A DNA stretch of 60,657 nt from a virus (Duplodnaviria > Caudoviricetes). Shown one piece after another: positions 19,254-50,110 of this stretch; positions within the stretch are counted from its first letter, which is position 1, and each line of letters begins with the position of its first letter. The notes under the pieces were generated by a model. The model was not told the origin of the DNA, ran no database searches, and saw only the letters and a list, made by a program, of their open reading frames with translations. The stretch is from the IMG/VR virus record IMGVR_UViG_3300028895_000276, positions 1 through 60,657 of that record. One strand, given 5' to 3'. Position numbers and translations under genes: made by a program.

Positions 19254-19909
19254 TCTCGCCTCCGTACTCGACCCATCATACTCATGCACCTGTCTCGTCT
19301 GCCAATCCAGTCAGCCAGCATAACCACCGCAGAGTAGGTGTCGCCCTGCGTCAGCTCTCTGTAGTGCAACGGCAGATGTGGTCGCTGTTGCAGCTTCAGA
19401 AAGTCGTGGATGCTCTGGTAGTAGTCGGCGTATAGCCTAGCCCACTGCACCTCGCTGTGGCGCCTGTTGTTTCTCCTGATCAGGCTCTCGATGACGCTGG
19501 TCTCGTCCCTGTACGTGATCACATAGCGCGGTATGCAGTGTTCCTCTCTCAGGATCCTGTCCCACGCGAAGCACGTCAGACTGGTCCTAGGATCCTTGAA
19601 GCCCCACTCGTCGTGTACGCTCCTCTCTCGGATAGCCTGCACCATTATATCGTGCAGCAACTCCGTAGCATCAGATAGCGCCGCTATAGACGGTACTTTA
19701 GCCCAGCTACCACCGGCAGTCTTTAGCAGTGCTCTGTTGACGGTGGACATGCCGGTGTCTTCGAAATACCCGTACGGTTGATGGGTATCGCGCCGGCTGC
19801 GGTCCTCCTCGCTGCACATCGGCAACCCAGCGGCATCCAGCATTGAAGCTGCCAGCGAAGTGCCCGTTCTATGCATCCCCAGCACCACATAGACGACCGG
19901 ACGTTTCAT
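19250..19909 (-). CDS. Sulfotransferase family protein
   Basis: VLGMHRTGTS, PYGYFED, WGFKDPRT motifs. Confidence 0.88.
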   Translation of the reverse strand: MKRPVVYVVLGMHRTGTSLAASMLDAAGLPMCSEEDRSRRDTHQPYGYFEDTGMSTVNRALLKTAGGSWAKVPSIAALSDATELLHDIMVQAIRERSVHDEWGFKDPRTSLTCFAWDRILREEHCIPRYVITYRDETSVIESLIRRNNRRHSEVQWARLYADYYQSIHDFLKLQQRPHLPLHYRELTQGDTYSAVVMLADWIGRRDRCMSMMGRVRRRE

Positions 19910-20556
19910 ACGTCGCTCCTCCCACGGTAGTCCAGATAGCACTGACAATTAGTCAGACACACGGTCTCGCCGCTGCCAGGGATAGCCGGTCTACCGCTGC
20001 TAGGCGATATAAACTCTTCGTCGATGCTCTTCCAACCCTCGCCGCTGAGGTCCTCACAGTCTGGGCAGTTCTCCGCAGCAGCGTTCATCACCCATCGATG
20101 CTCGGAATATCCACGCGACTGGCTCGCAGCCAGCAGCCCACGCTCATATGCCTCGCGGCTCGAGTTGGCATACATACGTGCTCTCGCACGGATCTGGCCC
20201 TCTGTAAGATCACCGGCTGCTACCTCGCCGTAGAAGCCGTCTAGATAGCGGTACTGGTCTGCTATGCTGCCGCCGATGCTGCCCCAGTCAGATTGCGTCA
20301 TCTGGTCGGTGCCACCACGCCCCACCAGGTATTGAGCGATGTACTGGTCCTTGATCTCCGTGCGCATCGCTGCGTGCCAGTCATCCGGACTGATGCTGTT
20401 GGTAGAGACCATATCCGCTAGGACGCCCATAACGTCACCGCCGGCAGAGATCGCCGTGTCGATCTCCGTCCGCACCTCAGCGTATGTAACTAGCCTGCCG
20501 GTCTCGATGTTGCGGTACCCGGTCCCTCTGAGCCTTGGATCGTATGTAAACGGCAT
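19906..20556 (-). CDS. Head morphogenesis (MuF-like) minor capsid protein
   Basis: After the portal; C-terminal W...CPDC...PG...C..NCQC.L pattern. Confidence 0.7.
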   Translation of the reverse strand: MPFTYDPRLRGTGYRNIETGRLVTYAEVRTEIDTAISAGGDVMGVLADMVSTNSISPDDWHAAMRTEIKDQYIAQYLVGRGGTDQMTQSDWGSIGGSIADQYRYLDGFYGEVAAGDLTEGQIRARARMYANSSREAYERGLLAASQSRGYSEHRWVMNAAAENCPDCEDLSGEGWKSIDEEFISPSSGRPAIPGSGETVCLTNCQCYLDYRGRSDV

Positions 20557-24794: not shown

Positions 24795-25633
24795 TCCTCC
24801 TGGTCGTATGGCAGCACTCGATACATGGTGTCGCGTAGGCACTCGCCGGTGACTCTCTCAACCACGCCGTCCTTCTCCAGCGTCCTCATGGCGCGTCTGA
24901 CATATGCCTTGTCGAACCCGAACCACTGCTGCAAAGGCCACGACACGTTGACTATGCGGCACGGCTTACCATCACCGATTAGCACAGCCAGCACCAACTC
25001 GGTGAGCGTGTGCACGTAGTTCAACTGTGCGTAGGGATGCTCTAGCGTCTTGCACGGTCTGCGCCACAGCACGTTCCACACCTCGTGTGCCGTCACCGTA
25101 TCGATGTCCTCCCTGCCCCACAGATAGGTCCTGCCGAAGATAGGGTAGTCAACTGCCTCAGGCTGCAGATCAGCGGTATCGAACACGGATGCTAGCAGCG
25201 CTGCACTCATCCGCTTACCGAGGAACCCGTGCCCGCGTAGCACGTCCGCGCCATCGCCACGCACCGGTACCCGGATCTCGTAGTTGCCGCGAGGGTTGGT
25301 GTCTCTGGTAAACAGCTTCTGCATGACCAACGTGTTGATCGCCCGGTGCGCCAGGTTCGATTCGTTAGGCGTGTCGTACTCTAGGGTGTGCTCCGATAGA
25401 CGACTCGTCCCGTTCAGCAACTTGGCTATGGCGTACACGTACGTGCGCCACAGCGCTATGCCCCTCGCCCCACCGCCGAACACCTGGTCGATGCTCCTGG
25501 TGGCTACGGTGGCCAGATCCAGCAACATAGTCTTGCGCATCGCGCTTATTGCCTGTGCCATCGCTACGTTCACTCCTGTCGTGTCTGCTTCCAGTCTCAC
25601 CCGTACATCATCAAGACCCATCGCTGTCGCCAT
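24791..25633 (-). CDS. Hypothetical protein with winged-helix-like segments
   Basis: HRAINTLVMQKLF and VRRAMRTLEKDGVVER resemble wHTH recognition helices. Confidence 0.55.
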   Translation of the reverse strand: MATAMGLDDVRVRLEADTTGVNVAMAQAISAMRKTMLLDLATVATRSIDQVFGGGARGIALWRTYVYAIAKLLNGTSRLSEHTLEYDTPNESNLAHRAINTLVMQKLFTRDTNPRGNYEIRVPVRGDGADVLRGHGFLGKRMSAALLASVFDTADLQPEAVDYPIFGRTYLWGREDIDTVTAHEVWNVLWRRPCKTLEHPYAQLNYVHTLTELVLAVLIGDGKPCRIVNVSWPLQQWFGFDKAYVRRAMRTLEKDGVVERVTGECLRDTMYRVLPYDQED

Positions 25634-27260
25634 ATCTCCCTCCGTGTGCTTTGATCGCCTGCGACATAGTCTCGTGCACGTGCCGGCGTGCCTCGCTATC
25701 GCGCTTCCCTGACACGCCGAACCAGTCCGACAAGACCGTTATCACCTCGTCCACGTCCGCAGACCCTACCCAGCGCCACCGGGTGTACCGACCATTCCCA
25801 GCACACTCCACGGCTCCGGTCTCACGCAGACGCGCTAGATACCTCTTAAACGTCGCCCTACCGACCACCTCCTCACCCATCGTAGCTAGCAACTCCGATA
25901 CGCTGCCCCACTCGCCGGCTTGCGATAGCATCGCCGTCAGCACTCGGATGCCAGCCTTCCCCATCCCAGTGCTATAGACCAGATCGCTACGCTGCAGCTC
26001 TCCCAGGATATTGCGATTAAATGAACCCGTCCGTGGATGAGCCGAGAACGCACCGTCTCTTTCGGCTCTTTCGGAATCATCTTTTTCTGTTAAGTCTTTG
26101 AAAGAAAATGATTCTGCGTGAGCCGAAAGAAGGGTATCGACGGACAGCCTATACTCCCTGGACGTAACCATAGAACCTGCCTTGCTGGTCTCCAGGATGC
26201 CGGCGTCTAGTAGTCGCTGCACTGCGGACCATGCGCCCTTGTAGCTGCTGCCTATGTTCTCAGCTATCTGCCTAAGAGACTGACTGCGGCACAAACCGTT
26301 ACCGCTGAGACGATAGTCAGTAATGTCACCGGTCAGCAGCGCGATGAATGCAGCCTGCGAGTTGCGCCTCGCCACCGCACCCCAGCCGCCGAGGTGTGCC
26401 CAATCGATCAGGGACGCAGCAGCAGTGATCTCGTCTAGCCTTTCAGCTATTTCAACTCCGTTATGTTCGAGGAACCCGGCTGCGCCCTCGTACGTGCGCA
26501 TCAACCACGCATCCGCATCCGCAGCCGGCAGCGCCGCGTAGTGCCCATATCCGCCGTCTTGCCGCAGCAGCCTGCCAATATCGTCCAGCGGAACGCCGGT
26601 ACTGCAGAGACTGCAGACTATGCTGGCATCCGAAGCACTCGCGCCACCGCTGGTGGTCAGCCTGTATGCCGGATCCCCACGCAGCATCGTGTCTGCCCGT
26701 AGGCTTATGTACCAGGATGGTGCCGGCTGCAGACCAGGGAACACCCGCTGCACGTCGGCAAACTCCAGCATCGGGACATTGCGATAGTCAAGCATCGAGG
26801 ACCACATGTACTCTCTGCCCTCTGGATGCAAGCTAGGCGGTAGCAGCGCCGCCACCCCTCGCCCGAGGAACTCGAGGTCTTGCACGTCTGCCGAGTTGGA
26901 CGTAGCCGGCGCCGTGTCCAAACGCAGCATCGCTTTCACGCCGCCCGCGTGTGCACCCGTGCTTCCACTCACTATCTCTGGCAGCACGTCGAACCCGAGG
27001 TGGCACAACCGGCGCCATAGCTCGTCGCTAGCGGATGGGGAATCGGCATCGAACACCAACAGGTTGCCGCTGGCAGACCCGCACGCCACAGCCACATTGC
27101 TGTCGTCCGCGAAGACAGCCGGCAGCAGTGACGCCGGCATCGCTCTACCTAGCAGAGGTCGCGTGTGCACGCTGGGTCGCTTAGCACCCTTGAGGAACGG
27201 GATGGGACTGTAGCCGGCAGCTAACAGATCAGCCGCCGCTCGAAGACTGCTCATAGGCAT
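25611..27260 (-). CDS. Bifunctional primase-polymerase (Prim-Pol/AEP) replication protein with C-terminal wHTH regions
   Basis: GYSPIP..KRP, NVAVACG..SGNLLVFDAD, LLPPSLHPEG.EY.W motifs; ATG at 27260 after AGGGGAG. Confidence 0.85.
   Translation of the reverse strand: MPMSSLRAAADLLAAGYSPIPFLKGAKRPSVHTRPLLGRAMPASLLPAVFADDSNVAVACGSASGNLLVFDADSPSASDELWRRLCHLGFDVLPEIVSGSTGAHAGGVKAMLRLDTAPATSNSADVQDLEFLGRGVAALLPPSLHPEGREYMWSSMLDYRNVPMLEFADVQRVFPGLQPAPSWYISLRADTMLRGDPAYRLTTSGGASASDASIVCSLCSTGVPLDDIGRLLRQDGGYGHYAALPAADADAWLMRTYEGAAGFLEHNGVEIAERLDEITAAASLIDWAHLGGWGAVARRNSQAAFIALLTGDITDYRLSGNGLCRSQSLRQIAENIGSSYKGAWSAVQRLLDAGILETSKAGSMVTSREYRLSVDTLLSAHAESFSFKDLTEKDDSERAERDGAFSAHPRTGSFNRNILGELQRSDLVYSTGMGKAGIRVLTAMLSQAGEWGSVSELLATMGEEVVGRATFKRYLARLRETGAVECAGNGRYTRWRWVGSADVDEVITVLSDWFGVSGKRDSEARRHVHETMSQAIKAHGGRYGDSDGS
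26058..26130. other. AT-rich inverted repeat within the Prim-Pol gene (candidate origin)
   Basis: tctttcggctc/gagccgaaaga outer arms, gaatcat/atgattc inner arms, AT-rich core. Confidence 0.5.
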
Positions 27261-27291
27261 CTCCCCTGGTACGCGTGGGTGTGGTCCTTTT

Positions 27292-27320
27292 ATTAAACCA
27301 CACGATGGCGCCGAGGTCAA
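27292..27320 (-). promoter_or_regulatory. Leftward promoter for Prim-Pol
   Basis: Minus strand TTGACC-17 bp-TTTAAT with TGTGG. Confidence 0.8.
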
Positions 27321-27364
27321 GTACCTGACAAACGACAAGGATACCTATCATATGCCGCACATGA

Positions 27365-37941: not shown

Positions 37942-38050
37942 GAAGGTACTCTCCTTGCACAGGACGGCACCAACAGGCCCTAACACACCCTCGATGCGAC
38001 GGAGAGCAAGGGAGATACCACGGAGAGCAACGGAGACCCATTCGGATTCA
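37942..38050 (+). repeat. Dispersed intergenic hairpin element, copy D
   Basis: gaaggtactctccttgcacaggacggc...; 37982-38037 identical to 32321-32376. Confidence 0.88.
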
Positions 38051-38073
38051 GAACTACCCTACAGGAGAGAGCG

Positions 38074-38514
38074 ATGCACGAGAGATGGCAGATTATCGGC
38101 AACCTTGGCGGAGACCCCGAGATGCGCTACACTGCAGACGGCACACCCGTCACCAACGTTAGCATAGCAGTGACACGACGCTGGAACGACCGCAACAGCG
38201 GCAACCGCCGCGAGCATACCACCTGGTACCGGGTGGCCGCGTGGAGCCGCAACGCTGAAGTGCTGGCCGAATACACGCACAAGGGAAGCCGCGTCTTCAT
38301 CGAAGGCGTGCCGGCAACCGACGAAAACGGCAACCCGCGCATCTGGACCGGGCAGGACGGGCAAGCACGCGCTAGCTATGAACTGACCGCGCAGAAGATC
38401 GTCCTGCTGGGTGACAGCGGTGGACAGCGCGACGCCGGCAACCAGCGGCAGGGTACCAGTCGCTATGCGGCACCAACCTCTGTGGCCGATAACGACGACG
38501 CCATCCCATTCTGA
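38074..38514 (+). CDS. ssb: Single-stranded DNA-binding protein
   Basis: IIGNLGGDPEMRYT, TTWYRVAAW, KGSRVFIEG, acidic tail DDAIPF. Confidence 0.95.
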   Translation: MHERWQIIGNLGGDPEMRYTADGTPVTNVSIAVTRRWNDRNSGNRREHTTWYRVAAWSRNAEVLAEYTHKGSRVFIEGVPATDENGNPRIWTGQDGQARASYELTAQKIVLLGDSGGQRDAGNQRQGTSRYAAPTSVADNDDAIPF

Positions 38515-38526
38515 GGAGGAGCAGCG

Positions 38527-38748
38527 ATGCGTAAACACACACGAACGGCAAAGCTAGTCGGAGTAGCCGTCATCGCGGCAGTCTTCCAAGGCATCATTAT
38601 CGGACAGAACCACGGGTGGCTTGCACAGGCCATGCTTATCGCGTGGGTGCTGGTATCGGTGATAGCTATCGACCTCAAGGACCGCCGCGATGCTGAGCTG
38701 GCCGAGTACGTGTACGACAGAGAGGACGAAGACGATGACACCGGTTAA
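38527..38748 (+). CDS. Small two-TM membrane protein
   Basis: Hydrophobic segments, acidic tail. Confidence 0.65.
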   Translation: MRKHTRTAKLVGVAVIAAVFQGIIIGQNHGWLAQAMLIAWVLVSVIAIDLKDRRDAELAEYVYDREDEDDDTG

Positions 38749-39274
38749 ACTGCACGACACCTTGCATGCCGCCGTCTTCGACGAGACGAAGTTCTGGCGA
38801 CAAACACATTACGGCAGCCTAGCACACCTATGGGCAGCCCGCAGAGGACAGGCATTCAGTCTGTGCGGTGCACGCCGTAGCCGGCACGTAATCGAAAGCC
38901 AGATAGCACGACCGAACGCGAAGCGATGCGCCAAGTGCGAAGCGTACGCAGACGCCTACCGGCACAGTCTGCAGCCGCTGCAAGTCAGCTTCGGGTCGCA
39001 AGGATCCTTCACCGACGAACGGTGGATCATAGCAACCCACCTCTACCACGAACTAACCGAGGATATCGTGCAGAGCATCCTGGCACAAGTCACCAAGGAC
39101 CACGACAGACTGCCGGCAAGGGTCATCTGCAGTGACGGCAACAGATCAGCGGTGACCGCCGCCGTGCGCAGGTTCAACCGGATGGAACGCACCGTGGTCC
39201 TGAGCGAAGCAGACAGCGTATGCGAATCCGGTCATCTATGGATTAAACTGCAACACGGGAGGGTCTACTCATGA
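38735..39274 (+). CDS. Hypothetical protein with a zinc-finger-like segment
   Basis: H...SLCG...CAKC pattern. Confidence 0.65.
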   Translation: MTPVKLHDTLHAAVFDETKFWRQTHYGSLAHLWAARRGQAFSLCGARRSRHVIESQIARPNAKRCAKCEAYADAYRHSLQPLQVSFGSQGSFTDERWIIATHLYHELTEDIVQSILAQVTKDHDRLPARVICSDGNRSAVTAAVRRFNRMERTVVLSEADSVCESGHLWIKLQHGRVYS

Positions 39275-39573
39275 CCAGACGTATCGTACGCGTGGACGAG
39301 ATATCAGGAGACAAGCGCGATGCCAGCGTAGTACGCCGCATCACCGTACCGTTTACGCCGGCTGAACTCGGTATCCTAGGCCGGGCAGCGGATGAAGCTG
39401 GCACCAACTTCAAACACCTCGTCAGATGCCTGGTGATCACAGGACTGCTGCAGCACTTCAGCGAGATAGCTAACCCGCTGCAGCACATCCTCACCGACGA
39501 GACTGACGATACCATCCACGAAAGTCTGCTACTGCCCGAGGTGGCTGATGGCAACCAGGATCTTGATGGGTAG
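39271..39573 (+). CDS. Small protein, possibly ribbon-helix-helix DNA-binding
   Basis: RRITVPFTPAEL..L..AA...G.NF..LVR pattern. Confidence 0.5.
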   Translation: MTRRIVRVDEISGDKRDASVVRRITVPFTPAELGILGRAADEAGTNFKHLVRCLVITGLLQHFSEIANPLQHILTDETDDTIHESLLLPEVADGNQDLDG

Positions 39574-40468
39574 TGCAGCCCTAGCTGCAGCAGCAGCCGA
39601 GGCCCTGCACACCGTCCTCAACCAGAAGACCGAGAGCGAGTATGCAGGACCGTGCCCCAAGTGCGGAGGTGAGGACCGGTTCGTCGTCTTCACGGATGGC
39701 AAACCGCGCTACTGGTGCAGGCAATGCGGGTACCGTGGTTTCCTGGACGGTATTCTAGAGATGACAGACGAGGACCGCGCCGCATACCAGGCAGCATCAG
39801 AAGAGCAGCGCGCCGCCGAAGCAGCCGCACGCGTCAAAGCCGAAGCCAAGATGGCCGAGAGCAAGGACCATCTGCAGTACTACAGTGCACTGCTAGCCAG
39901 ACCCGAACACATAGCCTACTGGACCGGTGAGGGCATCACCATGGATAGCATCCACAGATTCCAACTAGGATGGTGCGCTCACTGCCCCACCGACAGCGAA
40001 GGACGGTCCTCGTACACAATACCGATGTGGCGCGAAGGGAAGCTGGTTAACATTCGTCACCGACTGGAGACCACCGCATCTGGAGACCGCTACCGCCCAC
40101 ACGCCAAGCACCTACCGCGCAAGCTGCTGTTCAACCACGACGAGGCATTCGGCGCCAGTACCGGTATCATCCTGGAAGGCGCCAAGAAAGCCATCGTGCT
40201 AGGGCAACTTGGCTATGCTACGGTAGCCATCTGCGGCAAAAGCAACTACGACGAGAGGACCCTGGCACCGATACGGCACTGGGATCCAGCTTACGTGATG
40301 CTTGACCCGGATGCTACCGACACCGCGCTAGACATAGCCCGCATGTTGCACGGCAGAGGCTACCTAGTCAAGACCATCGTGAAGCCTGACGACCTCATCG
40401 TGCAGGGACACGGCAGCGCCGCCGATGTGGCACTGCTGCTGAAGTACGCTAGGAGGATCACACCATGA
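39548..40468 (+). CDS. DNA primase (zinc-binding + TOPRIM)
   Basis: GPCPKCGGEDRF..YWCRQC; IILEG..KA; MLDPD; KPDD. Confidence 0.85.
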   Translation: MATRILMGSAALAAAAAEALHTVLNQKTESEYAGPCPKCGGEDRFVVFTDGKPRYWCRQCGYRGFLDGILEMTDEDRAAYQAASEEQRAAEAAARVKAEAKMAESKDHLQYYSALLARPEHIAYWTGEGITMDSIHRFQLGWCAHCPTDSEGRSSYTIPMWREGKLVNIRHRLETTASGDRYRPHAKHLPRKLLFNHDEAFGASTGIILEGAKKAIVLGQLGYATVAICGKSNYDERTLAPIRHWDPAYVMLDPDATDTALDIARMLHGRGYLVKTIVKPDDLIVQGHGSAADVALLLKYARRITP

Positions 40469-40821
40469 ACAAGCAACTCAGCATGCTGCCACGCGTCAAG
40501 ACGCGCCAGCACGGACCGGGTGCACTGGATCCACACACGCCGCAGCAGAAGCGACTGTTTCAGGAGCTGCACCGCACCTACGCCGCGCTAGGACGACGAG
40601 CGCCTCGCCGGTTCGCAACCATCCAACAGGCAGAAGCCTACCAAACCGCCGCCGAGGAGCTAGGTGACGAATACAACGAGCTACTGCTCATGTCACTGCA
40701 AGCCGGCAGGACCAGCATGGCCGGCGTGTTGCGCTACCTGCAAGCGTGCGTTAGGTCGCGCAAAGAGACAGCCAGCGACGACAGCGAACCCAACGTCGTA
40801 AAGATGCCATGGACGGACTGA
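40465..40821 (+). CDS. Hypothetical protein (replication cluster)
   Basis: Coupled between primase and helicase. Confidence 0.65.
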   Translation: MNKQLSMLPRVKTRQHGPGALDPHTPQQKRLFQELHRTYAALGRRAPRRFATIQQAEAYQTAAEELGDEYNELLLMSLQAGRTSMAGVLRYLQACVRSRKETASDDSEPNVVKMPWTD

Positions 40822-41804
40822 CAGACGGGTCTCGCGGCATCGTCCACTCACCTGAGGACATCAGCCGCGCCACTACCGAATGGGCAAACCGCTGGACCGG
40901 TGACTACGGTCTAGGATTTGACTTCGGCGTGGACATCGTGGATCAGGATATGCTACCCTTCCGACCAGGCAGACAGACCATCGTCATAGCGCGTCCTGGC
41001 AATGGCAAGACCACGCTGCTGTGCTACATCACCACGCAGATCTGCAAGCAGCTAATAGAGCGACAGCAACCCAACAAGGCAGTCATCGCGTTCACGTGGG
41101 AGCAGTACGTCGAGGAGCTAGCAGCTACCATCGCTGCCACACCCGGTGCCATGCTGGGAGAGATCGAGCGTGGAGAAGCCAACCCTAACGCCATCACCGA
41201 GATGGGTATGCGCCTGCTGCGTCTGCCGCTCTGGATAGTAGGGTACAGCTACGAGCTACAGGACTACGTCATCACCTCGCTGGATGGCAAGAGCCACAAG
41301 CTACCCAAGCTAACACCAGACGCTATCACATCGGCTGTTGACTGGATATACAACGAGTATGGCGTCGAGCCGGCAGCATTCACCTACGACTACCTGCAGG
41401 AAATGACCATACCTGGAGACTTCGACAAACGGCAGCAGGTTGACTCTGCAGCACATACCACGAAAGAGATGGCGCTCAGGTACGAAGCACCCAGCATCGT
41501 AGCCGCACAGGCCAAGCGCGAGGTGGACGACTACAAGTTCAAGACGCCGATGCTGGGAGACTGCCAATGGTCGAGTGTGGGAGAGCAGGTCAGCGATACG
41601 GTACTAGGACTGTGGATGCCCTACATCGCGATGGGACAGGGAGAGCTAGACATCCACGGCACGCGCTATGAGGTCACGCCCAAGATGCTTGTCTGCCGCA
41701 TGAACAAACAGCGCGGAGGAATTCCCCGCGCCACGTGGGTGCTGGCCATCAACCATCGCCGGCTGAGCCTAAGCGAATATGTGGAAATAGAGGACCTCTA
41801 CTAG
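40809..41804 (+). CDS. dnaB: DnaB-like replicative helicase (C-terminal domain only)
   Basis: ARPGNGKT Walker A, DYLQ, AQAKRE, EQVSD, KQRGG. Confidence 0.9.
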   Translation: MDGLTDGSRGIVHSPEDISRATTEWANRWTGDYGLGFDFGVDIVDQDMLPFRPGRQTIVIARPGNGKTTLLCYITTQICKQLIERQQPNKAVIAFTWEQYVEELAATIAATPGAMLGEIERGEANPNAITEMGMRLLRLPLWIVGYSYELQDYVITSLDGKSHKLPKLTPDAITSAVDWIYNEYGVEPAAFTYDYLQEMTIPGDFDKRQQVDSAAHTTKEMALRYEAPSIVAAQAKREVDDYKFKTPMLGDCQWSSVGEQVSDTVLGLWMPYIAMGQGELDIHGTRYEVTPKMLVCRMNKQRGGIPRATWVLAINHRRLSLSEYVEIEDLY

Positions 41805-41922
41805 ATGGATCTCGCACGCGTAAGGACTACCCCTACCCCAAGACGTATGGAGGATACATGTAACGTGCTTACCCCGGTAACACGGACGTATCCGCATTTT
41901 GGGGAAGTGGGGCAGGGGACTA

Positions 41923-41988
41923 ATGATAGGTGTCATGTACGACTAGGACGACCGCCACTTGACGCCTACGGACAGGGTGTGGTTTAAT
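41923..41988 (+). promoter_or_regulatory. Polymerase promoter with operator
   Basis: ATGATAGGTGTCAT 41923, TTGACG 41959, TGTGG-TTTAAT 41983. Confidence 0.8.
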
Positions 41989-42013
41989 AGTGCACAAGCA
42001 AGGAGGGACGACC

Positions 42014-43825
42014 ATGAGCTACTACGCCTTAAGCTTCGAACCCGGTGACGTAGAAGAGCCTCTGACAGCAGAGGACATCGCCGCGATAGCTGCATCAGAT
42101 ATGGTGGCTATCGACACGGAGACCACCGGGCTGGACTACGACAGCAGGATCCTTGGTATTAGCGTAGCGTGGCGCGTGCCCGGTGCTATGCACAGTGCCT
42201 ACCTGAACCTTAGTCACCCGCTGAGCCTGTTTTCAGCACGCATCGACGACGACATCGTCGCGGACGTGATGAGAGCGGTCTTTGAACCGGACCGACCGGT
42301 GGCTCTGCTAAACGCCGTCTTCGACATAGAGAAGCTGTCACGCTGGGGTCACCTGGAGCTGCCTATCGAATACCCGTACCTCTACGACGCACAGATCCTG
42401 GCGCGTTGGCTGATGTCCTTCGAGAAGTTCCAAGGCGTCAGCATGGAGAAGCTAGTTAGCCGGCGCCTAGGCGGCATGCCGCCGTGGATGAGCAGCATGA
42501 AGAAGATGAGGTCCAAGCTAGGGACGCTACCAGCGGAGAAGGTCAGCCCGTACGCCCGCGCCGACGCCGAGTTCACCTTGATGCTGGTCGAGGATCTGAT
42601 GCGCGAGGGTAGACTGCTCTACGACGACGAAGTCCTAGACACGATGCTGGAACGCGAGAGCCGGTTTTTGTGGTTACTCACCCGGATCCAGCGACACGGT
42701 ATCCTGCTGGACCTCGAAGAGATCCACGAGCGGTCCGTACGAATGACCGCAGACATGCAAGAGCTGCGAGCGTTCCTGAAGCAGAACGGCATTCACAACC
42801 CGGACAGCCGCGATAGCGTTCTCAAGGGTCTACCTATGCACATCGTGGCAGGACTACCGCAGACCGACAACGGCAACTACAAGATCGACAGTGCTGCCCT
42901 AGCCGGAAAAGGACCGGTGGCCGAGGCAGTATTGCGCTATCGCAGTTTAGGCAAGGCCGTTGGTACGTGGCTGGACGGTTTCCGCAGCAAGGTAGCCAGC
43001 GATGGCCGGCTGCATCCGCGATTCCGCGCTGCCGGCACGGTCTCTGGCCGGCTGTCCTGCAACGAGCCGAATTTGCAGGCTGTCCCACTAGCGGACCGTG
43101 GCGCCGCGTTCGGTAGCCTGATGGGTATATTCAAGGCAGCACCTGGATTCTCGCTGTTGGCTGCAGACTACGAGCAAGCCGAGCTTCGGACGTGCGCCGC
43201 GTATGCTAAGTCTACCGCTATGGCCAACGCATTCAAGAACGGAGAGGATATTCACTCGTTTGCTGCTAGTCTGATGTGGCCGGACTCGGAGATCAACTAC
43301 GAGCTACGGCAGCTAGGCAAACGTTGCAACTACTGCACCACCTACGGTGGCGGGTACCGTGCGCTGGCCGAGAACACTGGCATACCTGAGAGCGAAGCCA
43401 AGATCGTCATCAACACGTACCGTCGTGCCTTCCCTGAACTGGTAGCAGCACAGAATCGCGCCGGTGACGTATGGGAGCAGCGAGGGTACATCACGATGTG
43501 GAATGGCCGCCGGCACTACAAGTCACCTAACGACGGCAGCTACAAAGCCTTCAACCAGGTCATGCAGGGTGACGTAGCTGAGCTGGTCAAGGACGCTATG
43601 CTGAGTGTGGACGCCCGGTTCGCAGAGATGGGTGTTGGCAACATCGTGCTACAGATCCACGACAGCATCGAAGTCGAGGTACAGACCGACGCCGTCGAGG
43701 ACGTGAAAGCGATGATGCGTAAGGAGATGGTAGCCGCCGCACCGCTGCACATCATGAACCGCACTGAGCCGCCTATCACCATGGACGTTGGGTTCGAGAA
43801 CTGGTACCCCGAGGAGGACGAATGA
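42014..43825 (+). CDS. polA: Family A DNA polymerase with 3'-5' exonuclease (candidate DpoZ)
   Basis: Exo I DTETTG, Exo II NAVFD, Exo III YARAD; SGRLS..PNLQ; motif A DYEQAELR; motif B KRCNYCTTYG; motif C IHDS. Confidence 0.95.
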   Translation: MSYYALSFEPGDVEEPLTAEDIAAIAASDMVAIDTETTGLDYDSRILGISVAWRVPGAMHSAYLNLSHPLSLFSARIDDDIVADVMRAVFEPDRPVALLNAVFDIEKLSRWGHLELPIEYPYLYDAQILARWLMSFEKFQGVSMEKLVSRRLGGMPPWMSSMKKMRSKLGTLPAEKVSPYARADAEFTLMLVEDLMREGRLLYDDEVLDTMLERESRFLWLLTRIQRHGILLDLEEIHERSVRMTADMQELRAFLKQNGIHNPDSRDSVLKGLPMHIVAGLPQTDNGNYKIDSAALAGKGPVAEAVLRYRSLGKAVGTWLDGFRSKVASDGRLHPRFRAAGTVSGRLSCNEPNLQAVPLADRGAAFGSLMGIFKAAPGFSLLAADYEQAELRTCAAYAKSTAMANAFKNGEDIHSFAASLMWPDSEINYELRQLGKRCNYCTTYGGGYRALAENTGIPESEAKIVINTYRRAFPELVAAQNRAGDVWEQRGYITMWNGRRHYKSPNDGSYKAFNQVMQGDVAELVKDAMLSVDARFAEMGVGNIVLQIHDSIEVEVQTDAVEDVKAMMRKEMVAAAPLHIMNRTEPPITMDVGFENWYPEEDE

Positions 43826-44448
43826 CCGAAGAGAAAGAGCCGTATCTGGACCACCCCAGCGCCACAGAGCAAGACGCTACCTGGAGGAACACATCCAGCG
43901 TGGATTGGCTGTCGCCACCCGAGGTGCTAGCAGCCGCCCGCAACGTCATGGGCAAGTTCGATCTCGATCCAGCCAGCAGCGAGAAGGCTAACCAGTTCGT
44001 GCGCGCCGAGGTATTCTTCGGACAGGACAACGGCACGGACGGTCTGCAGATGCCCTGGCGTGGCAGGGTCTGGTTGAATCCACCATACGGTAAGTACAAA
44101 CCGGGTGTCAGCCGTGCCGGCATGTGGGGCAAGAAGCTACTCGAGGAGTACATCGCAGGCAAGGTAATAGAAGCGTGCCTGTACGTCAAGACCGCCGTTG
44201 GCTATAAGTGGTTCGACAAACTACTGCAGCAGGCCGATGCCGTCTGTTTCCTGTGGGGTCTGCCCGAGCACCTGAACCTCGTAGACAACCGCTACGGGAA
44301 GTGCAAGATGGGCAGAGCAGTGATGTACTACGGGTCGCACCCTGCACAGTTCGTGCAGTGCTTTAGGCACCTAGGCTATTTCCGGTTCGACGCCGCCGAC
44401 CGCACGGATTACCACGTCCTACGCGCTGTTGGTATGGCCAAATTCTAA
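43822..44448 (+). CDS. Phage DNA N6-adenine (amino) methyltransferase
   Basis: W.SPP, FDLDPAS, DGL..PW.GRVWLNPPYG motifs of the phage Dam-like family. Confidence 0.9.
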   Translation: MTEEKEPYLDHPSATEQDATWRNTSSVDWLSPPEVLAAARNVMGKFDLDPASSEKANQFVRAEVFFGQDNGTDGLQMPWRGRVWLNPPYGKYKPGVSRAGMWGKKLLEEYIAGKVIEACLYVKTAVGYKWFDKLLQQADAVCFLWGLPEHLNLVDNRYGKCKMGRAVMYYGSHPAQFVQCFRHLGYFRFDAADRTDYHVLRAVGMAKF

Positions 44449-44462
44449 CGGAAGGAGACACC

Positions 44463-44786
44463 ATGAAGGACTCGTTGCAAGCGAAGGTCGGATCCGTGCT
44501 GTTCATGTTGGCGATGATTGGGTTGACCATCGGCGCCGCTGCCTACTTCGGCAATCTGCTGATCGAGGAGATAGTCAGCAACCGCGCCGAGACCATCCTG
44601 GCGAACGGTGAGCTGGCTATCGATGAAGCCATCGCCCGCAGCATCGACGCCGGCACAGCCGCTTCGATGGCAGACACCAGGCTAGCCACCGCTATGTCCT
44701 GGTACCCGTTCGTCATCGGAGTAACTGCCGTGTTCGCTGTCGTTTTCTACGTCCTACTGACAGCGCCGGCACGGAAGAACAGTTAA
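44463..44786 (+). CDS. Two-TM membrane protein
   Basis: N- and C-terminal hydrophobic helices; RBS AAGGAG. Confidence 0.7.
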   Translation: MKDSLQAKVGSVLFMLAMIGLTIGAAAYFGNLLIEEIVSNRAETILANGELAIDEAIARSIDAGTAASMADTRLATAMSWYPFVIGVTAVFAVVFYVLLTAPARKNS

Positions 44787-44788
44787 TA

Positions 44789-44845
44789 GTCATGTGTAGC
44801 TAGTGACACCTGACACTAGCACGGAGCAGCAAACTGGTGTTTAAT
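44789..44845 (+). promoter_or_regulatory. Operator-type promoter of the purZ operon
   Basis: Half site GTCAT 44789, GTGACACCTGACAC 44803, TTTAAT 44840; no TTGACA. Confidence 0.65.
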
Positions 44846-44876
44846 AGGGTCACGTCACAACCCACAGGAGGAAGCG

Positions 44877-45974
44877 ATGTTACAGCAGGTATGGAGTATC
44901 GTTGGCGGTCAGGCCGGCAGCGAAGGCAAAGGCAAGGCAGCCGGGTATCTGGCAGCCGCTCTCAAGCCCGAGGTGGTAGCGTGCGCGTTCACCGCCAACG
45001 CTGGCCACACAGCGTATGACCGGGACGGCAACAAGATCGTCGTGCACACCATCCCGATTGGCGCGTTCTTCGGCGCAAAGCTGGTCGTCATCGGACCGGG
45101 TGCTGCCATCCGCACGTGGCGCCTGATCGAGGAGATGGAAGCGTTGCACCGCGTGAACCCGGACTGCAAGGTGCTGCTAGACGAGAACGTGGTACTCATC
45201 TCACCGGAGCAGGTAGCGTGGGAAGCCGAGACGATGAAGAAGATCTCGTCCACGTGCCAAGGCGTGGGACGCGCACAGGCCGACAGGCTACTGCGGCAGG
45301 GTCGCGCAGACACCGCTAGCAACCACGCACCCACCTTCATCGAAGGTCTCACAGTAGGCAGCGCCGCCGAGGTGTTGCAGGTGCGCTACGATTCCGGTGA
45401 CAAGATCCAGATCGAAGGTTGTCAAGGTATCGACATCGACCTACTACACGGGATCCAGTACCCGTACTGCACCAGCCGCAGCATCACCGCCGCAGCCGTG
45501 GCTAACGACTGTGGATTCCCTGCAACCCGCGTGGACAGCGTGGTCTCGGTGTTCCGCACCTACCCTATCCGCGTGGGCAACGTGGTTGAGGAAGGCAAGC
45601 AGGTTGGATGGAGCGGACCTATCCCACGGGACAGCGACGAGTTGACGTGGGACGAGATGACCAAGCTGGCCGGCAGCCCCGAGAGACTAGAGGAGCGAAC
45701 CACCGTCACCAAGAAGGTACGCCGCATCTTCACGTGGAGCCGGCAGCGCTACATCGTCTCGCAGTGGCTGAACAACGCCACGCACGCGTGGGTTAACTTC
45801 GGTGACTACCTCGACTGGAACATCCACGGCGTGTGCGGCAACACCACAGAGCTGCATAGCATCAGCAAGACCGCTGCGCAGTGGGTTGACACCGAGATCG
45901 GCATGTCACACCTGCTGGCACTCGGTACCGGTCCTGGCATGGATGACGTGATCGCGCATCCTAGACTGAGGTAG
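44877..45974 (+). CDS. purZ: N6-succino-2-amino-dAMP synthetase (PurZ/PurZ0 type, PurA paralogue)
   Basis: GGQAGSEGKGK (Ser for the PurA Asp of GDEGKGK), NAGHT, EGCQG, YPYCTSR, RTYPIRVG, ERTTVTKKVRR, LGTGP; 365 aa. Confidence 0.88.
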   Translation: MLQQVWSIVGGQAGSEGKGKAAGYLAAALKPEVVACAFTANAGHTAYDRDGNKIVVHTIPIGAFFGAKLVVIGPGAAIRTWRLIEEMEALHRVNPDCKVLLDENVVLISPEQVAWEAETMKKISSTCQGVGRAQADRLLRQGRADTASNHAPTFIEGLTVGSAAEVLQVRYDSGDKIQIEGCQGIDIDLLHGIQYPYCTSRSITAAAVANDCGFPATRVDSVVSVFRTYPIRVGNVVEEGKQVGWSGPIPRDSDELTWDEMTKLAGSPERLEERTTVTKKVRRIFTWSRQRYIVSQWLNNATHAWVNFGDYLDWNIHGVCGNTTELHSISKTAAQWVDTEIGMSHLLALGTGPGMDDVIAHPRLR

Positions 45975-45976
45975 CG

Positions 45977-47116
45977 ATGATCGAGCGCTACAACAACGCA
46001 GACATCGCTGGTATCTGGAGCACCACGAGCCAGTACCAGCGATGGCTGGACATCGAGAGGACTTGGATACGCTGCTTACTGGACATCGATCCACCGATGG
46101 TACCAGGAGAGGTGGTTATTCACGACATCCGCGTCAATACGTACGAGATCGAGCACTTCGAGACCGTGACACACCACGATGTGCGAGCATTCCTGATGTG
46201 GCTAGAGCGTGAGCTGCCGTCGCCGCTACGCAGATACCTACACCTAGGACTAACAAGCTCTGATGTCGTAGACACCGGCACAGCCCTAGCAGTGCGCGGT
46301 AGCGTGCGCGTGTTGGATGATATCTACAGCCGGCTGATACACTACCTGTACAAGAGTGCAGCCAGCGCGCCGCCGCTGCTACCATCCTACTCACACGGGC
46401 AGCCGGCACGCAGCATCTCGAGCGCCCACTTCTACCGGCGTCTAGAGATACCCATAGGTAGAGCGTTCTCAGAGGTGAGCGTATCGCAGCTGCCCATAGC
46501 CATCGGTGGTCCTACTGGCGAATGGTCAAGCTTACCACCAGGAGCCACGTCCACGCTGCTGCAAGCACGCTCATCTTTCAACGTCATCATGTCCACCCGC
46601 TACGGCGTAAAGAACGTAGCGCCGAGATCGCAGGCTCTGGACCGCTCTTACTACACGAAGCTAGCACAGGCACTCAGCAGGATGTCCAACGCACTGTCAC
46701 AGGCTGCCCTGCACCTGAGGTTCTACCACCTACGCGGTATGCTGCGGATAGGCGGTACAGCCTCATCATCAGCGATGCCGAACAAGAGCAACCCAGTACG
46801 CCTAGAGAAGGTGTGCGGCATGGCACGCGTAGCGCGAGGGTACGCTCTGATGGCCGGCTGCAACCAGGACACGTGGGAGCTACGCGACATCAGCAACTCG
46901 TCAGTAGAAAGGGTCTGGATGCCGGATCTGTTCCACACGGTGGCACACCAGGTTAGCACGCTCTGCAACGTGATCGCCAAGATGCAGTGGGTCGAGCCGG
47001 CAATCGACGCTGAGCTAGCAGCCTTCCCCAATGACCCATTCGGAAAGATGGTGGCGTTGCAAGCCACCGGGATGCACTACAACAAAGCATGGCGCACAGC
47101 CAAGGAGGACACATGA
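45977..47116 (+). CDS. purB: Adenylosuccinate lyase homologue
   Basis: HHDV, HLGLTSSDVVDT, SHGQPA, SSAMPNKSNP..E, RDISNSSVER; 379 aa, short C-terminus. Confidence 0.92.
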   Translation: MIERYNNADIAGIWSTTSQYQRWLDIERTWIRCLLDIDPPMVPGEVVIHDIRVNTYEIEHFETVTHHDVRAFLMWLERELPSPLRRYLHLGLTSSDVVDTGTALAVRGSVRVLDDIYSRLIHYLYKSAASAPPLLPSYSHGQPARSISSAHFYRRLEIPIGRAFSEVSVSQLPIAIGGPTGEWSSLPPGATSTLLQARSSFNVIMSTRYGVKNVAPRSQALDRSYYTKLAQALSRMSNALSQAALHLRFYHLRGMLRIGGTASSSAMPNKSNPVRLEKVCGMARVARGYALMAGCNQDTWELRDISNSSVERVWMPDLFHTVAHQVSTLCNVIAKMQWVEPAIDAELAAFPNDPFGKMVALQATGMHYNKAWRTAKEDT

Positions 47117-47601
47117 GCACTGACTACAGCCGGCTGGGAGTGGTACCTATTGCCGACGTCACACAGGACCACGTGCAAGGATACGCCCGCGAGATGACAC
47201 CCAGCGCCGGCATCGTTCCGCTACACGACATCGAGCGCGTCATCGCGAGTATGTTTCTCAAGGTCAGGGACGGCGCTATGGACCGGATGCCCGGTACCCT
47301 GTCATTGTACGATGACGCGATGGCTATAGCGCCTCGCGTGCCCGGTATCGCGGACAAGCAACACGCTTTGGCCGAGGTACGCGCACGCATCAAAGAGCGA
47401 GGCGAGCAGTACGGGTGTGCCGTCCTCAACCTGATGGGTACCTGGTACACTAGCTCAAACGTGGCTGCCAAGCTACTGCGCGTGTGGGATCACTGGACAC
47501 AGCACAAGATCCTACTGACCGACGAAGTGCTAGACATCGCTGGGTACTGCATCTTGAACATGGCGATACTCACCCACAGCATGGCCGAGGTCGGACAATG
47601 A
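47113..47601 (+). CDS. All-alpha nucleotide pyrophosphohydrolase-like protein (candidate MazZ analogue)
   Basis: KERGEQYG ... KLLR ... DEVLDIAGY pattern of nucleotide-modification-associated MazG-like domains; operonic with purZ. Confidence 0.6.
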   Translation: MSTDYSRLGVVPIADVTQDHVQGYAREMTPSAGIVPLHDIERVIASMFLKVRDGAMDRMPGTLSLYDDAMAIAPRVPGIADKQHALAEVRARIKERGEQYGCAVLNLMGTWYTSSNVAAKLLRVWDHWTQHKILLTDEVLDIAGYCILNMAILTHSMAEVGQ

Positions 47602-48458
47602 ACAGCATCTACCTAGCCGGTCCTCTGGACTACGCCAACCTAGGCGACAAGGCAGCGTGGCGCGAACGGTTCGCAGCTCTGCTGGGTCAGCACTCTCCCA
47701 TGTCCGCACAGCTACCGCTGCTCTACGATCCTAGCAAGCCTTTCACCAACCCGCTGTCCAGCCCGGACACGCTGGTTTCCGTGAACATGGCCGCACTGGA
47801 AGCAAGCTCTATCGTGATAGCACTGGTTATCTCGACCGAGCCGTCGTGGGGCACACCCATCGAGATATGGGAAGCACGCCGGCAAGGCAAGCCCGTGCTG
47901 TTGTGGGTACCGAACGAGGACTGCCCGCCCTACCTCATCGCAGACACTGAACGGTATCTGACGCTGAACGCCATCGCCGCTAGGACCGCTGAGATGTTGT
48001 ACCAGGACGCAGATACCGACCTCGTCACCACGTCTCAAGACCTACTGTACGAGAACGGTGGTATCCAGTTCCCCAAGATCTCTGGTGATGTAGGGTATGA
48101 CGTCGAGGTGATGTCACAGACCAGGCTACTGCCGCACGCCATCACCAAGGTGCCATTGGGATTCAACGGTGAGCCACTACGCGTGAAGACACCGCGTGGT
48201 ACGTGGTTCTCGATGTTCCCACGCAGCAGCATGGTCGACAAGGGTCTAATGGTCGTGAAGACCGTCTGCGACGAAGGGTACACCGGTGATCTGTTCATGT
48301 TCGTGTACAACACCACCAACAAGCTGCTGATGCTGCTACCCGGACAGAGGATCGGGCAGATCGTGCTGTTCGATAGCGTCACGCCGCAGATGCGCCACGT
48401 GTCTACACTACCGCGCACCGCACGTGGCAGTAACGGTTTCGGCAGCACAGGGACGTGA
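47598..48458 (+). CDS. Fusion of a nucleoside 2-deoxyribosyltransferase-like domain and a trimeric dUTPase-like domain
   Basis: N-terminal IYLAGP and SWGTPIE..EA...GKPV; C-terminal GDVGYD, PRSS, CDEGYTG, GQRIGQ, RGSNGFGSTG. Confidence 0.88.
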   Translation: MNSIYLAGPLDYANLGDKAAWRERFAALLGQHSPMSAQLPLLYDPSKPFTNPLSSPDTLVSVNMAALEASSIVIALVISTEPSWGTPIEIWEARRQGKPVLLWVPNEDCPPYLIADTERYLTLNAIAARTAEMLYQDADTDLVTTSQDLLYENGGIQFPKISGDVGYDVEVMSQTRLLPHAITKVPLGFNGEPLRVKTPRGTWFSMFPRSSMVDKGLMVVKTVCDEGYTGDLFMFVYNTTNKLLMLLPGQRIGQIVLFDSVTPQMRHVSTLPRTARGSNGFGSTGT

Positions 48459-48898
48459 CCGTGAATAGGGACAGCCTACGCATCATCCGCACCACACCAA
48501 ACCCGAAAGACTACGCGTTGCACTGGTCAACCGCGTGGAACAGACACGTGAAACAGCGGTCAGTGATGCCAGAACCGATCTGCACCGACACCACCGGTGA
48601 GCTGGAGTTCGCCTACGCAGACCTCGACCGGCACTGGCGCTTCGACTGGTGTATACCCGAAGCCAAGGTCGCAGTAGAGGTGGACGGCGGCAAGATGATC
48701 GTACGCCGCACGCGTAGCGGCAAGGTCGTGCCAGTAGGCCGGCACATACAGGACGACGACGCGTGGAAGCTAAACAGCGCCGCGTCCCTAGGGTGGTTGG
48801 TATTCACCTTCACTCCGGCAATGCTGCGCAAAGACCCTGTCCGCTGCGTCGAGATGGTCGAGGAGACCGTGCTACAACGACTAGCGGGTTTGGTTTAA
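48455..48898 (+). CDS. PD-(D/E)xK endonuclease (DUF559/Vsr-like)
   Basis: EF...R.WRFD...KVAVEVDGG...H...D..K.N.A..LGW.VF.F. Confidence 0.8.
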   Translation: MTVNRDSLRIIRTTPNPKDYALHWSTAWNRHVKQRSVMPEPICTDTTGELEFAYADLDRHWRFDWCIPEAKVAVEVDGGKMIVRRTRSGKVVPVGRHIQDDDAWKLNSAASLGWLVFTFTPAMLRKDPVRCVEMVEETVLQRLAGLV

Positions 48899-48973
48899 TC
48901 ACACACAACCAACGGGAGCACGGGACTGCGGCAGACGCGGCAGCCCCGGCGCCCACCAACAAGGGAGAGACAC

Positions 48974-49372
48974 ATGAAGATCATTCTGGACATCACCACC
49001 ATACCGGTAGGCCGCAACGAGGATACAGACGAAGATCTGTTTGCTGTAGGCGTTGCCGTGGACATCCTGAGTTCTATCCTCGATGAGGACAACGAACTGC
49101 GACGAGCTATCGAGTACGGCACGGCAGCCGCCTTCTATCACACCCTCGTCTACGTCACCGAGAACATGGAACCCGCCGAACTATCCAGCATAATCGATGT
49201 GGCCACCACCGACGACGGATTCGACATCGTCACCGCTATCTCGCTACACACTACCAGCGCTATAGTCGGCGTCTTCAAACAGTTCTTGATCAACACGGGC
49301 AAGATGGCACCAAACAACGACGACACCGAAGAGTTGCTGGCCGAAGCACGCCGGCTGCTAGGAGCGGACTGA
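48974..49372 (+). CDS. Acidic hypothetical protein
   Basis: RBS AAGGGAG; 132 aa. Confidence 0.7.
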   Translation: MKIILDITTIPVGRNEDTDEDLFAVGVAVDILSSILDEDNELRRAIEYGTAAAFYHTLVYVTENMEPAELSSIIDVATTDDGFDIVTAISLHTTSAIVGVFKQFLINTGKMAPNNDDTEELLAEARRLLGAD

Positions 49373-49548
49373 TGGCTACACGCAAACGATCACGCAGACA
49401 CCTATCCGTCATCTGCAGCGAGTGCGGCAGAGAGATCAACTGGTCGTCCGCAGAGCAGTGCAGCCTGTGCGGCACAACGCTCTGCAAGTCGTGCTGGACA
49501 CGCTCTGGACGCTGCACACCCTGTGACCGATCCTTCAGAGACTACTAA
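49372..49548 (+). CDS. Small zinc-finger protein (58 aa, below the ORF-track cutoff)
   Basis: Hand translation MATRKRSRRHLSVICSECG...CSLCG..LCKSC...CTPC; TGATG overlap. Confidence 0.7.
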   Translation: MATRKRSRRHLSVICSECGREINWSSAEQCSLCGTTLCKSCWTRSGRCTPCDRSFRDY

Positions 49549-49553
49549 ACGCA

Positions 49554-49666
49554 CGGGAAGGTATTCTCCTTGCACGGGACGGCGTCTATAGGGGCCGACA
49601 TAGCCCTAGGTACCACGAAGAGCAAGGAGACTATCTCCCGTTGCAACGGAGACCCATTCGGATTCA
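49554..49666 (+). repeat. Dispersed intergenic hairpin element, copy E
   Basis: cgggaaggtattctccttgc ... gcaaggagactatctcccg ... cattcggattca. Confidence 0.88.
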
Positions 49667-49690
49667 AAACCACCCCTGCAGGAAGACATC

Positions 49691-49957
49691 ATGACGAACA
49701 AGATAATCTCAGGCATAGCCCTAGCAATGATCATCGTGGTCCTGTTCGTGTGGCTGGGTGGTATGCTCCGGGTGACAAACTGCTTCTGCTCCATGCTCAG
49801 CCAGTCCATGGGGCAGTACGACCGCCTAGGGTTCGCGTTCACCTACAGAGATGGCGTGATATCCGTCAATCGCGCCGAGGTGTGGATGCTACGTGCACAC
49901 TGTCAGTGCCAGATGCCGCTGCTACTCGGTCCTGACGAATGGAAGCTACCGTGGTAA
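49691..49957 (+). CDS. Small membrane-anchored protein
   Basis: N-terminal TM segment; last plus-strand gene. Confidence 0.55.
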   Translation: MTNKIISGIALAMIIVVLFVWLGGMLRVTNCFCSMLSQSMGQYDRLGFAFTYRDGVISVNRAEVWMLRAHCQCQMPLLLGPDEWKLPW

Positions 49958-50003
49958 CGTCGTAAGTAGATTACGCTAGAGCGGACGTATTCCTGGTAGA
50001 AGT

Positions 50004-50035
50004 GGAGCCGGTGGGGGAAGCAGCCCACCGGCTCC
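50004..50035. terminator. Stem-loop between convergent transcription units
   Basis: ggagccggtggg/cccaccggctcc perfect 12-bp stem. Confidence 0.7.
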
Positions 50036-50110
50036 GTGCTACGGGGGAGACACCACCGGGCAAAGGGTCAGATGCCCGGTCTGGCCACCACCAGCCAGCG
50101 AAGTAAGGTA

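Follow-up and report, generated by a model that had tools for sequence, protein, structure and literature searches.

A variant Dam-type amino-methyltransferase gene beside purZ in a phage genome with a putative 2-aminoadenine module

The window analysed here is the whole 60,657-bp virus record IMGVR_UViG_3300028895_000276 (Caudoviricetes). It encodes a small amino-methyltransferase (MTase) predicted to depend on S-adenosylmethionine (SAM). The gene is placed between those for a family A DNA polymerase (PolA) and a PurZ-type synthetase, that is, inside a cluster putatively devoted to 2-aminoadenine (Z), the base that replaces adenine in Z phages. This MTase is a real, intact, purZ-linked variant of a known family, and its subfamily was previously unseparated within PF05869. 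It departs from nearly all of its homologues at four positions, and among 274 domains compared, the only other protein with the same four residues is likewise encoded beside purZ. An earlier note on this DNA had pointed to the paradox of an adenine MTase inside an adenine-free genome module. As judged from the genes, the paradox is real and sharper than that note stated. The reading that we favour, with a probability of about 0.4, is that the enzyme methylates the N6 amino group of Z in the phage DNA.

The methyltransferase and its four altered residues

The start codon of the MTase gene (ATG, 43822-43824) overlapped the PolA stop codon (TGA, 43823-43825) in the form of ATGA (43822-43825), and the sequence GAGGAGGA (43811-43818) ended 3 nt before the ATG. 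The distance from the MTase stop codon to the PurZ-type start (44877) was 428 nt, most of which was occupied by an open reading frame (ORF) for a 107-aa membrane protein. The earlier note had described an intact NPPY amino-MTase that overlaps the polymerase stop and lies about 430 bp upstream of purZ, and both statements were borne out. The GC contents at the three codon positions of the MTase ORF were 0.60, 0.41, and 0.75, which was similar to those of the adjacent genes. The protein scored 43.1 bits against Pfam PF05869 ("Dam"; residues 28-144), above the gathering cut-off of 28.1, and matched phrog_111 ("DNA methyltransferase") with an E-value of 1.5e-22. Against the TIGR01712 equivalog ("phage N-6-adenine-methyltransferase"), it reached 31 bits, below the cut-off of 97.05.

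The AlphaFold2 model of the MTase, based on an alignment of 43 sequences, had a mean predicted local distance difference test (pLDDT) value of 83, with a core above 90. Its top Foldseek match was the cap m6A enzyme PCIF1 (E 7.6e-4). In an exhaustive structural scan, PCIF1 (Z-score 11.7) was followed by METTL5 (9.8), M.BseCI (9.5), E. coli Dam (9.4), and M.TaqI (9.4). The top matches were mostly N6-adenine DNA or RNA MTases with Z-scores of 8.9-11.7, which indicated a class I SAM-MTase fold of the amino-MTase type. No solved PF05869 structure was found in the PDB by phmmer or by profile; three profile matches (E 0.79-1.6) were N-terminal domains of DnaB, looked like chance, and were rejected.

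Conservation was scored on an alignment of the MTase with its 119 best homologues. Each position of the FDLDP and NPPY motifs was common to 103-119 of them, and FDLDP probably forms the cofactor (motif I-like) site. A residue was shared by at least 80% of the homologues at 34 positions, and the MTase kept 28 of these residues, including FDLDP (46-50), W79, GRVWLNPPYG (81-90), and G171, where 107-119 homologues agreed. The changes at the other conserved positions comprised three conservative ones (E28D, T31S, and L43M) and three radical ones located on strands 5 to 7 (L121Y, R147L, and F150H). Position 31 was Thr in 116 homologues and Ser in the MTase. At position 121, where the MTase has Tyr, 112 homologues had Leu and none had Tyr. 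Position 147 was Arg in 118 homologues and Leu in the MTase. Position 150, which is His in the MTase, was Phe in 116 homologues, Tyr in two, Trp in one, and His in none. In the model, the strand that follows the NPPY strand carried residue 121, and the hairpin after it contained residues 147-150. By the topology of amino-MTases, these two elements would be motifs VI and VIII, which hold the flipped base together with motif IV. The four altered residues (31, 121, 147, and 150) probably line this base pocket.

The combination S31/Y121/L147/H150 was found in 2 of 274 domains, namely those of the MTase and of a protein designated P0121, and Leu147 together with His150 also occurred in these two only. 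The domains came from 267 proteins, which were the best matches of a word-indexed search of 5.8 billion proteins and of an exhaustive phmmer scan of 1.84 billion representatives. The word-indexed search gave 4,963 matches, the nearest of which was 45% identical, and many were fused to ParB-like domains. The exhaustive scan gave 9,624 matches at E ≤ 0.001, with P0121 as the best. Among 50,697 phage records, 534 matched the MTase at E ≤ 1e-3; none contained a relative more than 60% identical, and the best among the matches listed were 27-36% identical. In the GTDB species genomes, which gave 32 loci, identity over most of the query reached 36% at best and was higher only in short segments. No close relative was found in IMG/VR with either the window protein or P0121 as the query.

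P0121 is a protein of 197 aa that matched with 204 bits and was about 51% identical to the MTase (50% in phmmer and 51% in the pairwise alignment). It carried the same Ser, Tyr, Leu, and His at the four altered positions, and its score against TIGR01712 was 31.2 bits, again below the cut-off. It was encoded on L113, a metagenome contig of 2,250 bp, in the order PolA C-terminus, MTase (P0121), and PurZ. The PolA C-terminus and the PurZ of this contig were 62 and 60% identical to those of the window, respectively. The gap between PolA and the MTase was 85 nt and contained GAGGAGGA. The purZ ATG overlapped the MTase stop, and the 107-aa membrane ORF was absent, so that the MTase directly abutted purZ. 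The metagenome scan yielded no close relative other than L113: identity to P0121 did not exceed 45% in any of the other 79 loci listed. None of the close relatives found lacked purZ, which left no such case for comparison.

The two loci indicate that the MTase gene, its place, and its odd residues are kept while about 40-50% of the protein residues have diverged. This conservation across divergence suggests a selected, specialised enzyme tied to the Z cluster, and it argues against decay. From the sequences compared, the subfamily is conserved and apparently selected, and so far it has been seen only beside purZ.

The viral record is complete, with direct terminal repeats and a G+C content of 59.1%. 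The same DNA was present in runs from several studies of sediment and seawater metagenomes; no RNA runs were listed among the runs containing it. Contigs from four further public runs were placed on 41900-48500, and their pieces covered 43766-44687 with 0 letter differences. One of these runs covered the MTase gene fully and three covered it partially, and all were identical at every covered position. Because identical contigs were recovered from four further runs, the MTase sequence is no assembly accident.

The putative Z-base module

Table 1. Features of the MTase gene and of the surrounding gene cluster, with coordinates in the window.
Feature	Position	Strand	Basis
Family A DNA polymerase (PolA) with 3'-5' exonuclease	41990..43825	+	PF00476 E 5.4e-61; PF01612 E 1.9e-11
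PF05869-type SAM-dependent amino-MTase, variant subfamily (S31, Y121, L147, H150)	43822..44448	+	208 aa; Pfam, phrog, homologue alignment, AlphaFold2
FDLDP, residues 46-50, invariant motif of the family	43957..43971	+	D49, P50 in 119/119 homologues; L48 in 118/119
NPPY, catalytic motif IV, residues 86-89	44077..44088	+	N86, P87, P88 in 119/119 homologues; Y89 in 117/119
L147-P-E-H150 replacing family R-x-x-F, strand 6/7 hairpin	44260..44271	+	putative motif VIII, base pocket
107-aa ORF, hydrophobic N- and C-terminal helices (two-helix membrane ORF)	44463..44786	+	no Pfam or PHROG family
PurZ-type 2-aminoadenylosuccinate synthetase	44877..45974	+	phrog_1211 E 4.9e-59
PurB-like adenylosuccinate lyase	45977..47116	+	PF00206 E 1.3e-13; TIGR00928 purB 174.5 bits, below cut-off 326
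170-aa protein without family	47089..47601	+	no Pfam, PHROG or NCBIfam match
Nucleoside deoxyribosyltransferase (NDT)-like and dUTPase-like fusion (DmtZ-DutZ type)	47598..48458	+	PF05014 E 8.9e-9; PF00692 E 1e-18
PrimPol (primase-polymerase), member of the Wayne-like gene set	25614..27338	-	PF09250 E 1.6e-13; phrog_1156

The window PolA (Table 1) was 23% identical to DpoZ of phage phiVC8 and 26% to PolA of phage Wawa, and its closest phage matches were mycobacteriophage PolI proteins at about 27%. Its helix O read K-R-C-N-Y-C-T-T-Y-G, in which the last aromatic residue is Tyr where the phiVC8 and Wawa DpoZ have Phe. This Tyr-to-Phe replacement in helix O is the only mutation common to both DpoZ clades (PMC8599892). 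The window PolA failed both NCBIfam models of this polymerase, with scores of 133 against phage_DpoZ_1 (cut-off 500) and 96.3 against phage_DpoZ_2 (cut-off 350).

The window PurZ contained GSEGKGK with Ser15 and shared all 39 invariant columns of an alignment of nine PurZ proteins. At the P-loop position of the catalytic Asp13 of PurA, all (100%) of 147 phage PurZ were reported to have Ser in place of Asp, and 99% of the PurA group to have Asp (PMC12884076). The top-scoring NCBIfam family of the window PurZ was NF038379, with 220.8 bits, below the cut-off of 300. In an unrooted tree of 12 sequences with long branches, the window PurZ and the L113 PurZ (1070-2161) formed a long branch of their own with support of 100/99. 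This branch stood apart from the PurZ0 pair of Wawa and Archimedes and from the GSTGKG PurZ group. A single-protein PurZ scan of IMG/VR gave one weak match only.

Downstream, the PurB-like gene started 2 nt after PurZ. Among 38 other purZ records, PF00206 was found in one, that of Gordonia phage Archimedes, where it lay about 7 kb away from purZ, and the word PurB did not occur in PMC12884076. The phage lyase may provide freedom from host PurB in the second step of dZMP synthesis. The 170-aa ORF lay between the PurB-like gene and the fusion, with its stop overlapping the fusion ATG, in the slot that holds DUF5664 in Wayne-type phages. Two assignments of this ORF were rejected: it was not similar to Wawa gp50 (E 0.14), and an ESM Atlas lead to DUF1599 (0.89) was below the trustworthy range.

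The fusion protein aligned end to end with Wawa gp52 (residues 2-285 against 3-303) at 25% identity and an E-value of 2e-20. Its homologue in phage Wayne is DmtZ-DutZ. In the Wayne protein, dATP and dGTP are hydrolysed to monophosphates by the Dut part. Its NDT part releases adenine from dAMP and is also able to transfer deoxyribose-5-phosphate to Z (PMC12884076). The genome thus carries a PurZ0-type DmtZ-DutZ fusion although its PurZ branches away from PurZ0. DatZ (PF13023/PF12917) and MazZ (PF04447) gave no match in the whole genome at E-values up to 1; Pfam scans of the predicted ORFs found neither of them, and phiVC8 DatZ as a query found nothing in the genome.

Exclusion of adenine from the phage DNA is plausible from the gene content because of the Ser signature of PurZ, the DmtZ-DutZ-type fusion, and a gene order like that of Wayne and Wawa. 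The earlier note had assumed an adenine-free module and a fully Z-substituted genome. The gene content, with an NDT-dUTPase fusion like the Wawa DmtZ-DutZ, supports adenine exclusion, but "fully" is weakened by a PolA that lacks the DpoZ hallmark.

The k-mer counts of the genome gave 331 GATC sites against 406 expected. GGCC was strongly avoided genome-wide (166 observed against 292 expected, ratio 0.57). CAGCTG occurred once against 18.5 expected, and GAGCTC was absent against 9.3 expected. Hexamer palindromes containing A or T numbered 710 against 834 expected, and the GC-only ones as a group were not depleted (182 against 183). The near-absence of some A/T-containing palindromes and the avoidance of GGCC would be unexpected if Z fully shielded the A-containing sites.

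Between the membrane ORF and purZ, within a gap of 90 nt, lay an inverted repeat (GCTAGTG-8 nt-CACTAGC, 44799-44820) that was not followed by a T-run, a possible regulatory hairpin. A promoter and terminator scan of 38000-50200 gave fewer matches than shuffled sequence and none within the operon. Elsewhere in the genome, a family 2 glycosyltransferase with an E3-binding tail and two adjacent sulfotransferase-family genes (13014-14888 and 18417-19948, minus strand) sat among structural and packaging genes, which is unusual cargo for a siphovirus-like genome.

What the enzyme may methylate

In the mechanism that we propose, the MTase would be a functional SAM-dependent amino-MTase and a fixed part of the Z-base/replication operon of its lineage. 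It would be translated together with the polymerase and made with the replication proteins. SAM would be bound through the conserved FDLDP and NPPY framework, Z would be flipped out of newly replicated phage DNA, and its N6 amino group would be methylated at specific sites to give N6-methyl-Z. The changes T31S, L121Y, R147L, and F150H may open up space for the 2-amino group and offer it hydrogen-bond partners. Methyl-Z would then add protection against the nucleases that still cut Z-DNA, and post-replicative methylation would be stacked on pre-replicative base replacement. A rationale for such protection is that dZ-DNA is still cut by 47% of 147 restriction enzymes (PMC12944874). Methylation of Z is also chemically plausible because E. 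coli MTases, for which Dam and the EcoRI methylase are cited, are reported to act on Z-containing sites in vitro with an efficiency at least ten-fold below that on ATGC-DNA (PMC8342488).

The step from this activity to the whole S31/Y121/L147/H150 subfamily as a dedicated 2-aminoadenine N6-MTase, whose product in the DNA would be N6-methyl-2,6-diaminopurine, is a more tentative proposal. No description of N6-methyl-2,6-diaminopurine as a natural DNA base was found in the literature. Literature searches on purZ, 2-aminoadenine, diaminopurine, and N6-methyl turned up no phage-encoded MTase described as acting on Z, and phage-encoded MTases were not discussed in the purZ papers searched. The word "methyltransferase" did not occur in PMC12884076 or in the bioRxiv text 10.1101/2025.10.22.683976. 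The supplementary list of 116 dZ-associated Pfam domains of the latter, which is outside this count, may list an MTase domain. The earlier note had named Z as a possible target. A purZ-linked subfamily of two in which four near-invariant positions are altered agrees with a shift of substrate, for example to Z, and the sequence does not by itself name the methylated base. No support was found for the suggestion in that note that the MTase marks residual adenine for removal.

Other purZ phages were represented by eight named phages (S-2L, phiVC8, SH-Ab 15497, Wawa, vB_BpsS-140, Kokobel2, Archimedes, and Bm1) and by an IMG/VR set made of the best 80 of at least 540 confirmed relatives; 22 of these 80 records were at least 90% complete. 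The frequency of this MTase in purZ phages had been proposed as a check. PF05869 was present in none of the 88 records (0/8 named phages and 0/80 IMG/VR records), but other amino-MTase families were found in 10 of the 80 (about one in eight), with PF01555 in eight and PF02086 in two. Neither of these two families was found in the eight named phages, and PF00145 was present in 2 of 38 purZ records tested. Motif IV of the ten enzymes was DPPY in five, NPPY, DLPY, and SPPY (record G044) in one each, and two had no classical motif. Adenine-type MTases therefore recur in Z phages, in three unrelated families.

Two of the 80 loci, G013 and G039, had an MTase adjacent to purZ on the same strand. G013 (L023 760-4137) comprised PurZ, a PF01555 MTase with DLPY, MazZ, and a DatZ-like HD protein. 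G039 (L049 3344-9672) comprised PolA, dCMP deaminase, PurZ, MazZ, an HD protein, a helix-turn-helix protein, a protein without assignment, and a D12-class MTase (PF02086, DPPY) located 1.5 kb after PurZ. DLPY was common to 115 of the 120 closest homologues of the G013 MTase, which indicated that this enzyme is typical of a large family. The idea that every Z-linked MTase has a remodelled pocket was rejected for G013, since DLPY is the norm of its family.

Several points weigh against methylation of Z. We infer both Z as the substrate and the Z content of the genome from genes. The S/Y/L/H subfamily has two members only, and the four residues were placed in the base pocket from secondary structure and the general topology of amino-MTases. 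The Z selectivity of the window polymerase is doubtful on its sequence. Some adenine may be left in the DNA, since PolA lacks the Phe of DpoZ and DatZ and MazZ were not detected, and the PurZ score below the cut-off and its separate branch also seem to weaken full Z substitution. Because the ordinary G013 MTase sits inside a Z cluster, linkage to Z does not require a remodelled enzyme. MTases are common in phage replication modules, so that adjacency alone is weak evidence, and 2 purZ-adjacent cases in 80 are about what chance placement in such modules would give.

Some of these points would equally suit an ordinary N6-adenine MTase that acts on host DNA or on residual adenine of the phage, the four residues reflecting a changed sequence specificity or lineage drift. 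Adenine specificity is part of the family annotation, the NPPY motif is typical of enzymes that methylate N6 of adenine, and GATC is abundant in the genome with its 331 sites. Adenine may persist beside a PolA without the DpoZ hallmark and with no DatZ or MazZ found, and amino-MTases of ordinary type occur in the 10 of 80 purZ records described above. However, this explanation, which we consider rather unlikely, does not account for why the only two proteins changed at R147, F150, and L121, among the 274 domains, both adjoin purZ. The DmtZ-DutZ-type fusion also argues for active removal of dATP and dAMP (PMC12884076). Retargeting of the MTase to the N4 amino group of cytosine, the other exocyclic amine in ZTGC-DNA, to give N4-methylcytosine (m4C) is improbable. 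In its favour, the candidate base-pocket residues are remodelled, N6-type amino-MTases are known to show some N4-cytosine activity, and the genome has 59% G+C. SPPY or SPPF is the usual motif IV of N4-cytosine MTases, and an SPPY-type enzyme is carried by the purZ record G044. However, motif IV of the window MTase is NPPY, and no structural neighbour was titled as an N4-cytosine MTase.

It is also improbable that the MTase no longer methylates DNA and has become a pseudo-enzyme, a DNA-binding factor, or an enzyme with an RNA or nucleotide substrate. In favour of this, the near-invariant R147 and F150 are lost, the score against TIGR01712 is 31 against 97 bits, and in structure the MTase comes closest to an RNA cap m6A enzyme, with RNA MTases among the next matches. 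However, all invariant cofactor and catalytic residues are retained, and both phages carry an intact ORF with translational coupling. Moreover, the four replacements are conserved at 51% identity in the second phage, which points to selection on a working pocket.

Z phages are treated as having solved the evasion of restriction by replacing adenine, and a conserved adenine-type MTase in a Z operon would be a second layer. If the MTase methylates Z, the product would be a new natural base and the enzyme a tool for site-specific marking of synthetic ZTGC-DNA, and one could learn from the four altered residues how a pocket for adenine is adapted to a 2-amino purine. Should adenine be its target instead, then adenine persists in such genomes or the phages modify host DNA.

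Comparison with known systems

The window MTase shared with the phage Dam-type MTases of PF05869/TIGR01712 a small single-domain layout, FDLDP, GRVWLNPPYG, and G171. It differed from this family by T31S, L121Y, R147L, and F150H, at positions where 112-118 of the 119 homologues agree, and by its location inside a Z-base cluster. Its nearest homologue outside the subfamily was about 45% identical. E. coli Dam and M.EcoRI acting on 2-aminoadenine are a precedent for an N6-adenine MTase that methylates N6 of Z (PMC8342488). However, both are host-encoded and at least ten-fold less effective on Z, whereas the window MTase is phage-encoded, lies in a Z cluster, and has an altered candidate pocket.

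The canonical PurZ-MazZ-DatZ clusters of G013 and G039 likewise contained an adenine-type MTase, encoded on the purZ strand and no more than 2 kb away. Their MTases belong to families unrelated to that of the window, and no subfamily tied to purZ was seen there.

The gene arrangement of the window resembled that of the Wayne-like (PurZ0-type) clusters, known from the Arthrobacter phages Wayne and Wawa and the Gordonia phage Ghobes (PMC12884076; PMC8599892; bioRxiv 10.1101/2025.10.22.683976). As far as those sources describe them, these clusters and the window have in common PolA, a variable slot, PurZ, a small gene, and the NDT-dUTPase fusion, together with the presence of PrimPol and the absence of DatZ and MazZ. 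The order in Wawa is PolA, HNH, PurZ, gp50, gp51, and fusion, and in the window the HNH slot is taken by the MTase together with the membrane ORF. Compared with the Wayne-like clusters, the window adds a PurB-like lyase, its PolA keeps Tyr where DpoZ has Phe, and its PurZ stands on its own branch.

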